Virus record (IMG/VR): IMGVR_UViG_2703718789_000003
Coordinates: 1 to 10,411 of that record
Length of the DNA stretch: 10,411 nucleotides
Origin: a virus
Lineage: Duplodnaviria; Heunggongvirae; Uroviricota; Caudoviricetes
Strand: one strand, 5' to 3'
The translations under genes were made by a program, and so were the position numbers. How positions within the stretch are numbered: position 1 is the stretch's first letter; each line of letters begins with the position of its first letter. The notes under the pieces are model-generated. The model did not search any database, was not told where the DNA came from, and saw only the letters and a list, made by a program, of their open reading frames with translations. This document shows positions 1 to 3,292 of the stretch, in pieces.

Positions 1-275
1 TCAGAACGCTCGGTTGCCGCCGGGCGTTTTTTATTGGTGAGTCCATCAAGCGCATACTTAAAAGCCCTGCTAATCGGACTGATGTCTGATGCCATTCCGA
101 AAGCACACAAGACCGAAGCAATAAATCTCCAGTCCGTTCTGCTTATCTTCGATTCATGACAGCCAATCATCTTTGCCAGACCGCGCTGGGTAAGCGTTGA
201 CAGGTTGATAAGTAAATCTGTTTCTGCGCGATCAACGTCGCGCTGTGATAGTTTGCTGTAACTTGTTTGTTCCAT
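1..275 (-). CDS. cII: CII-like transcriptional activator, partial (C-terminal end lies beyond window start)
   Basis: Minus-strand translation from ATG (revcomp of 273-275) gives MEQTSYSKLSQRDVDRAETDLLINLSTLTQRGLAKMIGCHESKISRTDWRF...LTNKKRPAATERSE; the C-terminal stretch TNKKRPAATERSE matches lambda CII as I recall it; open to the window edge, which is why it is absent from the ORF track. Confidence 0.7.
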   Translation of the reverse strand, partial: MEQTSYSKLSQRDVDRAETDLLINLSTLTQRGLAKMIGCHESKISRTDWRFIASVLCAFGMASDISPISRAFKYALDGLTNKKRPAATERS

Positions 276-286
276 TTCTTACTATT
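253..286 (+). promoter_or_regulatory. Candidate CII-dependent pRE-like promoter (TTGC-N6-TTGT with TACTAT -10), reading toward cro antisense and cI
   Basis: TTGC at 253-256, six nt, TTGT at 263-266, overlapping the first codons of the cII-like gene on the other strand; -10-like TACTAT at 280-285; same position and geometry as lambda pRE. Confidence 0.25.
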
Positions 287-394
287 TCCATAGGTAAATA
301 ATTTGGTTTTTTATTGTGCACCATTGACAGTCATCCATGACCACGCCGGGCACCCGACCGTATACCGGGCCGTTCGGTATAAAAATTTGCTTTA

Positions 395-625
395 TTAAGC
401 TGCTTTGTTCGGATTGGGGAACAAAGCGGATAAATCAGGGCGAATCAGGTATGCAGGGACGCTTCCATTGGTAGCCATTTCAATGCGCTTGGCATTTTCA
501 GCGGATACCCTTTTCTTCCCATGCAACCAAGCCCATACAGACGGCTGCTTAACACCGCAGGCATCAGCTAACTTTTGCTGACTTCCTACTGAGTCAATAG
601 CCGCTTTAATAGCCTTGTTGACCAT
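395..625 (-). CDS. Cro-like small HTH regulator (Cro/YdaS family), 76 aa
   Basis: ORF track 395..667(-); I prefer the internal start MVNKAIKAAIDSVGSQQKLADACGVKQPSVWAWL... at 625 because an AGGAG Shine-Dalgarno lies 9 nt upstream on the minus strand (revcomp of 635-639); HTH-like core QQKLADACGVKQPSVWAW; diverges from cI across an operator region. Confidence 0.7.
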   Translation of the reverse strand: MVNKAIKAAIDSVGSQQKLADACGVKQPSVWAWLHGKKRVSAENAKRIEMATNGSVPAYLIRPDLSALFPNPNKAA

Positions 626-656
626 AAAAATAACTCCTGCTGAATTCACAATTAGG

Positions 657-685
657 ATAATAGCCAAAGCTATTCAGAAAGTAAA
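657..685 (-). promoter_or_regulatory. PR-like sigma70 promoter for the cro-like gene (TTTACT -17- TATTAT on minus strand)
   Basis: Minus-strand -35 TTTACT (revcomp of 680-685) and -10 TATTAT (revcomp of 657-662), 17-nt spacer; overlapped by operators at 659-674 and 684-699. Confidence 0.45.
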
Positions 686-723
686 TAGCTTTAGGTATTT
701 GACTAATAATAGCTGTAGCTATA
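659..723. promoter_or_regulatory. OR-like tripartite operator array: AATAGCcaaaGCTATT (659-674), AATAGCtttaGGTATT (684-699), AATAGCtgtaGCTATA (708-723)
   Basis: Three 16-bp inverted repeats with 6-4-6 geometry, centre-to-centre about 25 and 24 bp, lying between the divergent cro-like and cI-like genes and overlapping the candidate promoters. Confidence 0.6.
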
Positions 724-725
724 GG
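699..725 (+). promoter_or_regulatory. PRM-like promoter for cI (TTGACT -15- TATAGG), possibly giving a leaderless or near-leaderless cI mRNA
   Basis: TTGACT at 699-704 and TATAGG at 720-725, 8-13 nt before the cI ATG at 734, with no good SD; third operator overlaps the -10 and second operator abuts the -35. Confidence 0.3.
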
Positions 726-733
726 TTGTACGA

Positions 734-1465
734 ATGAAACTAGATACTTTTTCTCAAAGGCTTACATACGCGATGGATCAGGCTGGGTTTACTCAGGCTT
801 CTCTTGGCAATGCTGTTGGCATGTCTCAGCCAAGCGTCTGGAAACTTACGTCTGGAAAAACACGCAATACGCGCAAACTTTTTGAAATATCAAAAGTGCT
901 TGGAGTTCGTACGGAATGGCTTTCCGATGGAACTGGGCCAATGCGTGATGAGGGAGTTGAACCTTATAATCCAAAATCTTCTATTCCCCATGAAAGCACG
1001 TGGGGATATTTGGACCCATGGGATGGAGGAACGCCTTTAAGAGGTGATGAAGTTGAAATTCCTTACCTTAAAGATATTGAGTTTGCATGCGGGGATGGTC
1101 GGGTGATTGATGAAGATCACAACGGCTTTATGTTGCGCTTCTCCAAATCAACCCTTCGCAGAGTTGGCGCGAACAGTGATGGAAGCGGGGTTGTTTGTTT
1201 TCCGGCTCGTGGCAACAGCATGGAGCCAAACATTCCTGATGGAACAACAGTTGCTGTTAACACCAACGATAAGAAAATAGTTGACGGAAAGATTTACGCC
1301 ATTAACGAGAACGGCTGGAAACGCATTAAGATTCTCTTTCGGTCAGGGCCTGACAAGGTAAGCATTAGAAGCTTTAACTCACTGGAATACCCACAAGAAG
1401 AAAAGAATCTAAGCGATATCGAGATCATCGGAAGAATCTTCTGGTGGTCTGTAGTTGACTACTAA
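734..1465 (+). CDS. CI-like prophage repressor: N-terminal XRE-type HTH plus C-terminal S24 (LexA/UmuD-like) autopeptidase domain
   Basis: 243-aa ORF; HTH-like region QRLTYAMDQAGFTQASLGNAVGMSQPSVWKL; C-terminal GNSMEP (catalytic Ser motif) and downstream Lys (GWKRIKIL) typical of S24 peptidases; divergent from the cro-like gene across the operators. Confidence 0.85.
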   Translation: MKLDTFSQRLTYAMDQAGFTQASLGNAVGMSQPSVWKLTSGKTRNTRKLFEISKVLGVRTEWLSDGTGPMRDEGVEPYNPKSSIPHESTWGYLDPWDGGTPLRGDEVEIPYLKDIEFACGDGRVIDEDHNGFMLRFSKSTLRRVGANSDGSGVVCFPARGNSMEPNIPDGTTVAVNTNDKKIVDGKIYAINENGWKRIKILFRSGPDKVSIRSFNSLEYPQEEKNLSDIEIIGRIFWWSVVDY

Positions 1466-1482
1466 CCTCATCACACCACAAC

Positions 1483-1507
1483 AAACCCGCTTTTTGCGGG
1501 TTTTTTA
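1483..1507 (+). terminator. Rho-independent terminator after cI (stem AAACCCGC/GCGGGTTT, loop TTTTT, then T-run)
   Basis: Perfect 8-bp inverted repeat at 1483-1503 followed by TTTTTT; A-rich upstream so it could act in both directions. Confidence 0.65.
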
Positions 1508-1604
1508 TTGCCCAAAAAACACCAAATCTCACATACAAGAAAAATAAATTACATTAGATATCAATGACTAAATAACCAAAGGAGTTATTTTATAACTATA
1601 GCTA

Positions 1605-1633
1605 TTTACAGCAATAATAGCTTTGGATATAGT
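1605..1633 (+). promoter_or_regulatory. pL-like sigma70 promoter (TTTACA -17- TATAGT) overlapped by an OL-type operator AATAGCtttgGATATA (1616-1631)
   Basis: Near-consensus -35 and -10 hexamers with 17-nt spacer; operator half-site identical to the OR operators; a second degenerate site (ATAGCTAT core, 1597-1604) overlaps the -35. Confidence 0.45.
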
Positions 1634-1729
1634 TAAGCCATGTCGAACGGCGCGACATTAAACCATGCGTCGGGAGCGCGGCGGGTTCAGGATGAACGGC
1701 AATGCTGCTCACTACAAAAGAACATTTCC

Positions 1730-3019: not shown

Positions 3020-3045
3020 CGTTATGTATAAATAAGGAGCACACC

Positions 3046-3186
3046 ATGCAATATGCCATTGCAGGGTGGCCTGTTGCTGGCTGCCCTTCCGAATCTTTAC
3101 TTGAGCGAATCACCCGTAAATTACGTGACGGATGGAAACGCCTTATCGACATACTTAATCAGCCAGGAGTTCCAAAAAATGGATAA
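3046..3186 (+). CDS. cIII: CIII (FtsH/HflB inhibitor that stabilises CII), 46 aa
   Basis: MQYAIAGWPVAGCPSESLLERITRKLRDGWKRLIDILNQPGVPKNG is nearly identical to lambda CIII as I recall it, but ends 8 residues earlier; AAGGAG SD 6 nt upstream of ATG 3046; the ORF-track entry 2944..3186 is an upstream in-frame extension. Confidence 0.85.
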   Translation: MQYAIAGWPVAGCPSESLLERITRKLRDGWKRLIDILNQPGVPKNG

Positions 3187-3292
3187 AACACTTATGGCTA
3201 TCCAGACTAAATTCACTATCGCCACTTTTATTGGCGATGAAAAGATGTTTCGTGAAGCCGTAGAAGCCTACAGAAAATGGAGGTCAAAATGA
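3179..3292 (+). CDS. kil: Kil-like small protein (lambda Kil is an FtsZ-targeting host-killing protein), 37 aa
   Basis: MDKTLMAIQTKFTIATFIGDEKMFREAVEAYRKWRSK resembles my recollection of lambda Kil; AGGAG at 3165-3169; starts 8 nt before the cIII stop as in lambda; sits inside ORF-track entry 3053..3292. Confidence 0.5.
   Translation: MDKTLMAIQTKFTIATFIGDEKMFREAVEAYRKWRSK

Follow-up and report, generated by a model that had tools for sequence, protein, structure and literature searches.

Which DNA word is read by the CI repressor and the Cro protein encoded in the IMG/VR virus record IMGVR_UViG_2703718789_000003 (Caudoviricetes), and does this word define an immunity specificity that is already known from other lambdoid phages? 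The question is raised by the first 10,411 nt of this record (the whole stretch of DNA analyzed, hereafter the window), in which the divergent genes cro and cI are separated by an intergenic region of 108 bp with three dyads at 659, 684, and 708. A first-pass annotation had taken these palindromes, together with a fourth copy at 1616-1631, for a self-consistent set of repressor operators of the form AATAGC-N4-GCTATT that likely marks a distinct immunity group. We consider it very probable that the window contains the immunity region belonging to a lambdoid prophage of Escherichia coli, a P22-like/HK022-like mosaic, and that palindromes of the refined form WATAGCY-WW-RGCTATW are operators common to CI and Cro in a lambda-style lysis/lysogeny switch. 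This reading is carried by the sites themselves, their placement, their enrichment, their conservation, and their covariation with the recognition helices of the two proteins, which are encoded as follows:

395..625, minus strand: cro, 76 amino acids (aa), YdaS/P22_Cro Pfam matches (2e-19 and 2e-7)
734..1465, plus strand: cI, repressor of 243 aa (the length given in the first-pass annotation), HTH_3 and Peptidase_S24 domains

Probable Operator Sites

The dyads are distributed over two regions, the right operator (OR) between cro and cI and the left operator (OL) beyond the 3' end of cI:

659..674: OR1, AATAGCCAAAGCTATT, perfect 6+4+6 palindrome, of the OR sites the one nearest cro
684..699: OR2, AATAGCTTTAGGTATT, one mismatch, 25 bp from OR1
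708..723: OR3, AATAGCTGTAGCTATA, one mismatch, 24 bp from OR2
1616..1631: OL1, AATAGCTTTGGATATA, two mismatches, present in all group A relatives (see below)
1591..1606: OL2, TATAACTATAGCTATT, two mismatches, 25 bp from OL1, overlooked in the first-pass annotation
1571..1586: possible degenerate OL3, AATAACCAAAGGAGTT, four mismatches, 20 bp from OL2, weak evidence

All four palindromes of the first-pass annotation lie where it had placed them, and the spacing at OR, which it had called lambda-like, is indeed close to that of the annotated lambda record (25/24 bp from center to center as compared with 24/23 bp). Its single OL site, by contrast, has to be replaced by two good sites (1591 and 1616) and a possible degenerate third, with a spacing of 25/(20) bp. 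The left half of this OL3 candidate is conserved in relatives and its right half is variable; better copies occur in the relatives L025 and L029 (AATACCTAAAGCAATT, AATAACCAAAGCAATT).

A search of the 10.4-kb window with the pattern AATAGCNNNNGCTATT (AATAGC-N4-GCTATT), allowing up to two mismatches, yielded five matches as compared with 0.61 expected, a number that was reached in none of 200 shuffles, the test being partly circular as the consensus was taken from the very sites counted. All five matches are located in the two intergenic regions flanking cI, and an independent repeat finder recovered these units as direct and inverted repeats of one another. A position weight matrix (PWM) scan assigned at least 17.7 bits to the five sites and at most 9.5 bits to everything else in the window, which adds little weight since the matrix was trained on those five sites; with the WATAGCYWWRGCTATW matrix, about 0.3 perfect sites per 5 Mb would arise by chance. 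Independent support is therefore provided by the sites of relatives, as discussed below, and by scans of whole phages at the same threshold: In phage APC_JM3.2 (39.8 kb) five of six sites fall on OR/OL, as do five of nine in the E. coli MBT-5 prophage (41.5 kb around the identical region), and the few sites beyond OR/OL in both scans put the density there at about chance level. A motif spread at comparable density over the genome, which the first-pass annotation had named as an argument against operators, was thus not seen in the window, in APC_JM3.2, or in the MBT-5 prophage. That a cluster of similar AT-rich words has arisen by chance is extremely improbable: In its favor are the AT-richness of the intergenic regions and the post hoc derivation of the consensus, but the shuffles, the regular spacing of 24-25 bp, and the retention of the sites at homologous positions in relatives with diverged flanks effectively refute this explanation.

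The half-sites of the originally proposed motif hold, whereas its free center does not. Among 21 distinct sites (42 half-sites), positions 2-4 (ATA) are found in 42/42, G at position 5 in 31/42, and C at position 6 in 38/42; position 7 is always a pyrimidine, so that the center reads roughly YWWR. The better form of the motif is WATAGCY-WW-RGCTATW, with ATAG-N6-CTAT as invariant core. OR1 and OR2 with their flanks additionally form a 24-nt inverted repeat (79% complementary; window 651-707, center about 679), which reaches beyond the 16-mers (ATTAG...CTAAT).

Further candidates were considered and set aside. Two AATAGC half-sites at 596 and 608 (596-613, 12 bp apart, inside cro) were rejected as operators because they represent Ala-Ile codons of the peptide KAIKAAI and are kept in close relatives and lost in L007; they probably reflect coding constraint. 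A half-site-only match over the cro ribosome-binding site of relatives (AATAGCTCCTGC) was likewise rejected, being absent from the window (AATAACTCCTGC). The MBT-5 prophage carries an extra good operator-like dyad, AATAGCTTTAGCGATA (22251-22266 of locus L038), which is located within a leftward open reading frame (ORF) about 1 kb past OL. This dyad lies in DNA that is not shared with the window, to which the MBT-5 prophage is identical only up to about position 2200.

Predicted Promoters and Geometry of the Switch

The first-pass annotation had described the OR palindromes as overlapping PR-like and PRM-like hexamers and the fourth copy as overlapping a pL-like promoter, and all of these overlaps are borne out, for PR and pL by promoter scan and for PRM by reading the sequence. 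The three promoters are consensus matches only:

657..685, minus strand: PR-like promoter for cro, TTTACT (685-680), 17 bp, TATTAT (662-657), 9/12 matches
699..727, plus strand: PRM-like promoter for cI, TTGACT (699-704), 17 bp, TAGGTT (722-727), read by eye
1605..1633, plus strand: pL-like promoter, TTTACA (1605-1610), 17 bp, TATAGT (1628-1633), 10/12 matches, strong sigma-70 match

OR1 lies over the spacer of PR and extends into its -10 hexamer by 4 bp. OR2 overlaps the -35 hexamers of PR and PRM by 2 bp and 1 bp, respectively, with its center at about -42.5 from the inferred PRM start. OR3 is located inside the PRM spacer, overlaps the PRM -10 hexamer by 2 bp, and ends 10 nt from the cI ATG. 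At the other end of cI, OL1 lies between the pL -35 and -10 hexamers and overlaps the latter by 4 bp, and OL2 is situated mostly upstream of the pL -35 hexamer, which it overlaps by 2 bp. This is the layout of a lambdoid tripartite switch: The operators overlap PR as well as PRM, with OR1 and OR2 over PR and OR3 over PRM, and a second cluster with the same motif covers pL (OL1 and OL2; OL3 is doubtful). Between the PRM -10 hexamer and the cI ATG at 734 lie 6 nt, and relatives have TAGGAT, TATGAT, or TATATT in the same frame. In lambda, the -10 hexamer (TAGATT) is likewise separated from the cI ATG by 6 nt, an arrangement that yields a leaderless cI mRNA; by analogy, the cI mRNA of the window is probably leaderless, too.

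DNA-Binding Domains of CI and Cro

The N-terminal domain of CI (residues 6-68) is of the 434 type: A phmmer comparison with the 434 repressor (PDB 2r63/1per; E = 2.7e-8 to 5.2e-8) aligns 62 residues including the helix-turn-helix, and HTH_3 is matched with 23.1 bits at a cut-off of 23. In this alignment, the recognition helix Q32-P-S-V-W-K-L of CI is placed on Q28-Q-S-I-E-Q-L of 434. The C-terminal part matches Peptidase_S24 (PF00717; 3.7e-15) and has the features of a self-cleaving S24 repressor, with S162 and K196 invariant and aligned with the catalytic Ser/Lys of lambda CI. A FACGDG motif is present as well, exactly as in phi80 CI, which is cleaved at Cys-Gly. Cro belongs to the P22-Cro/YdaS family, and its recognition helix reads KQPSVWAWL. 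The recognition helices of CI (QPSVWKL) and Cro (QPSVWAW) consequently begin with the same five residues, QPSVW, as is expected of two proteins that read common operators.

Conservation and Covariation among Relatives

Scans of genome and viral contig collections returned 33 loci encoding relatives. Those of group A (Escherichia, Pseudocitrobacter, and others) have CI with QPSVWKL and Cro with QPSVWAW at 63-100% CI identity and provide 13 distinct OR sequences. In their alignment, 31/36 half-site columns are invariant as compared with 23/72 other intergenic columns (Fisher p = 1.3e-7), a statistic that overstates independence because the aligned relatives share ancestry; the central columns are invariant in just 2/12. 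Down from 92% to 63% CI identity, the half-sites thus remain unchanged, and it is the centers and spacers that drift. The OL1/OL2 pair is found 25 bp apart in every relative, including L007, in which extra genes place OL 2.2 kb from the cI ATG. One viral contig, L029, shows a 1-bp deletion in the center of the site homologous to OR3 (AATAGC-TTT-GCTATA, 2476-2490), which would be either a sequencing error or a naturally occurring variant with a defective OR3.

Outside group A, the sites differ together with the proteins. In L005 (Symbiopectobacterium), CI has QPAIQKM and Cro QPAVHKW, and the sites read AATAAC-N4-GTTATT at unchanged spacings of 25/24 bp (OR) and 25/20 bp (OL). Pantoea-type relatives have CI with QPTIWRL and Cro with QPSVS; they keep ATAG-N6-CTAT, and their OR2 and OR3 are spaced by 34 bp. 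L030 of group D (QAGIQKL) has two convincing dyads only and was left out of the covariation evidence. As judged from these sequences, the framework of the switch stays constant, and the DNA word varies along with the recognition helices.

Several points weigh against operators of a specificity of their own. Besides the partial circularity of the enrichment test and the shared ancestry of the aligned relatives, OL3 is poor in the window with its four mismatches, the promoter scan of the window made no PRM call, and with three promoter-like sites as compared with 3.1 in shuffles it found no excess overall. QPTIWRL relatives with only 54-57% CI identity have the same ATAG core. Moreover, several invariant blocks fall on promoter hexamers: PR -10 and -35, both of which lie within invariant blocks of the alignment, overlap with the left half of OR1 and of OR2, respectively, and PRM -35 overlaps with the right half of OR2; in addition, the right ends of OL1 and OR3 (TATA) fall on -10 elements. 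This coincidence would be explained if the conserved blocks were merely the -10 and -35 elements of tightly packed PR, PRM, and pL, and the palindromes a by-product of divergent promoters. We regard this as very unlikely, as promoter spacers hold three half-sites that are nevertheless invariant (the right one of OR1, 668-675, and the two of OR3), OL2 is positioned mostly upstream of the pL -35 hexamer, and one 16-bp dyad occurs five times at 24-25 bp spacing. Furthermore, all half-sites of L005 have changed from AATAGC to AATAAC together with the recognition helices, a change that promoter function does not need. These observations favor operators read by CI and Cro.

Comparison with Characterized Immunity Types

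With lambda, the window shares the divergent cI and cro genes, the three OR operators, an OL spacing of 25/20 bp (24/20 bp in lambda; the third site of the window is weak), an OR2 that adjoins PRM -35, the 10 nt between OR3 and the cI ATG, the S24 C-terminal domain of CI, a cII gene downstream of cro, and a cIII thermometer. The operators themselves differ, as the first-pass annotation had surmised: Those of lambda are 17 bp long and of the TATCACCGC type, whereas those of the window are 16-bp even dyads (WATAGCY..RGCTATW), and no match with up to two mismatches was found in the lambda immunity region. CI is only 23% identical to lambda CI overall and has a 434-type N-terminal domain, Cro is of the all-alpha P22-Cro/YdaS type instead of the lambda Cro type, and the pL leader contains an HK022-type putL in place of nutL and N. 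The window also lacks rexAB, so that no more than about 0.9 kb separates OL from OR.

The 434 repressor has a homologous DNA-binding domain, in which Gln28 corresponds to Q32 of the window. The operators of 434 are 14 bp long and read ACAA-N6-TTGT, and the core ATAG-N6-CTAT has the same 4+6+4 geometry of 14 bp and the same first base A. In both phages, the recognition helices of repressor and Cro begin alike, and the center of the site is AT-rich and probably not contacted. In contrast, the recognition residues are QPSVWK here and QQSIEQ in 434, core positions 2 and 4 are T and G here and C and A in 434, and one additional conserved flanking base per side extends the site of the window to a 16-mer.

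The closest characterized repressor is phi80 CI with 51% identity, nearly all of which is found in the C-terminal domain: This domain is nearly identical, including FACGDG, and phi80, too, carries three operators at OR as well as at OL, which overlap the promoters in the same way. Its N-terminal domain and recognition helix, however, are unrelated in sequence (SPQTVNNW in phi80 as compared with SQPSVWKL), and its annotated operators are 19-bp AATCAACA-N3-TGTTAATT. The repressor of POCJ13 (53% identity) is accompanied by dyads of the form TTAACT-N3-AGTTAA, and as with lambda the immunity regions of phi80 and POCJ13 gave no motif match with up to two mismatches.

A search with the DNA-binding domain in 50,697 phage records returned identical domains (100%) only in APC_JM3.2 and Wanchaivirus PDP110P2, and all other records reach at most 55% identity. 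Both phages are 99% identical in DNA to window 380-1714 (cro, OR, cI, OL, putL) and contain all five sites; their records, annotated with a "helix-turn-helix/peptidase S24 protein" and an "antirepressor" or with nothing, name neither operators nor an immunity type. Searches for the two phage names yielded only a genome announcement and taxonomic mentions, and in the literature on lambdoid immunity groups and recognition helices we found no description of this specificity. The same operators combined with the same DNA-binding domain were thus found in none of the characterized phages (lambda, 434, P22, 21, phi80, HK022, 933W, and others).

Given the ATAG core of the QPTIWRL relatives, the immunity group could extend beyond this repressor, or there could be cross-reaction. 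The sites would then be true operators of a larger group of cross-immune phages, to which those of the Pantoea type also belong, or of a named but unsequenced wild lambdoid type (mEp or HK group). For the former, L006 and L031-L035 provide AATAGC-ATAT-GCTATT and other ATAG-N6-CTAT sites in spite of their low repressor identity; for the latter, many of the immunity groups described in classical collections have no sequences. We consider both unlikely, since the QPTIWRL relatives differ in the helix (T/I/R as compared with S/V/K), in Cro, and in the OR2-OR3 spacing, no characterized phage among the 50,697 records exceeds 55% identity in the DNA-binding domain, and a literature search for the operator strings gave a single, irrelevant hit. 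The sequence comparisons rather support the half-site ATAGC, presumably read by QPSVW, as an immunity specificity unlike those of the characterized lambdoid phages, and heteroimmunity towards known phages is well supported as a prediction.

Proposed Regulatory Mechanism

Binding, the order of affinities, cooperativity, activation, and heteroimmunity are what we infer from the arrangement described above, and the mechanism is modeled on lambda and 434. In the lysogen, CI dimers would occupy OR1 and OR2 via their 434-type helix-turn-helix, thereby blocking PR, and CI at OR2 would touch the -35 region of PRM and could stimulate this promoter. At high concentrations of CI, OR3 would be filled and PRM switched off, which corresponds to negative autoregulation, and CI at OL1 and OL2 would block pL. 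SOS-activated RecA would induce self-cleavage of CI (Ser162/Lys196; at the Cys-Gly of FACGDG, as in phi80 CI), whereupon Cro, with its identical QPSVW helix start, would take the same sites and silence PRM. By analogy, we would guess that the perfect OR1 is the strongest site, that binding is cooperative, and that OR and OL may loop over the gap of 0.9 kb.

A more tentative idea, which we hold to be possible but rather doubtful, is that the repressor family forms a series of natural specificities within one constant switch architecture (25/24, 25/20), in which a small change of the recognition helices of CI and Cro (Trp36 replaced) goes along with a single change of the half-site from AATAGC to AATAAC. 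CI and Cro would have moved from QPSVW to QPAIQ/QPAVH in such a series, and the 55%-identical QPTIWRL repressors retain the ATAG core.

Neighboring Features of the Immunity Region

The window corresponds to the early-left arm of the prophage, and its map is inverted relative to lambda: cII and cro are oriented leftward, followed by OR, the rightward cI, a terminator, OL/pL, and a putL-like leader. Three features of this map lie beside the switch itself:

from 275 leftward, off the window end, minus strand: cII, Pfam Phage_CII (3.7e-34)
1483..1503, plus strand: predicted intrinsic terminator after cI, keeping PRM transcription apart from the pL operon
3033-3091: Rfam Lambda_thermo (cIII thermoregulator), 88.5 bits, overlapping the start of ORF 3053-3292

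The C-terminal part of ORF 3053-3292 matches Lambda_Kil. The cIII thermometer was the sole hit of an Rfam scan of the window at gathering thresholds, in which no family covered the operators or the put region; the proteins encoded in the remainder of the window are Kil, the anti-RecBCD protein Abc2, Ead/Ea22, DUF551, and an integrase.

A PRE-like element is located inside the 5' end of cII (window 253-285, plus strand): TTGC (253-256)-N6-TTGT (263-266) is followed after 13 nt by TACTAT (280-285), which is the layout of the CII-activated PRE of lambda, directed towards cI. On the other side of cI, window 1634-1714 is 92.8% identical to the annotated putL antiterminator leaders of HK022, HK75, and O276; the assignment as HK022-type putL is based on this identity, and the predicted folding of the put-like leader (1640-1720) does not differ from shuffles (z = -0.2) and hence lends it no support. 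The putL homology starts immediately after the pL -10 hexamer, and L004, L025, L028, and L029 have a different leader from the same point, which places the joint of the immunity module at about pL +1. Downstream of the put site, window 1789-1850 matches HK620, HK629, and HK630 with 98% identity at the 3' end of their gene N and the beginning of hkaQ, and it appears to be a remnant of the N gene. The adjacent ORF of 120 aa (1841-2203) carries the RefSeq name "antitermination N domain protein" and has no Pfam hit.

Occurrence and Significance

The immunity region (at least 80% coverage) is present in 31/5,426 complete E. coli genomes, which corresponds to about 0.6% and includes a few plasmid copies. 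It was located at ten plasmid places, for example in NZ_CP158430.1, a plasmid of 179 kb. In the 41-kb record NZ_LT599830.1 the match is split into two pieces and an HNH endonuclease gene is annotated under it; this record is possibly a phage-plasmid or an extrachromosomal prophage.

The analysis provides an operator and promoter map that is ready for use with the immunity type of these 31 of 5,426 E. coli genomes and of two isolated phages, all of which are without annotated regulatory sites. The map may serve for the annotation of prophages, for predicting which prophages exclude which phages, and as a source of orthogonal repressor/operator parts. If the correlations between recognition helices and half-sites were causal, they would amount to a simple recognition rule for 434-type phage repressors, and partial cross-immunity would be predicted between distantly related phages of different genera. 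The specificity is uncharacterized and the switch design is textbook: The understanding of phage switches is left unchanged, the lambda paradigm being spelled here with a different DNA word.

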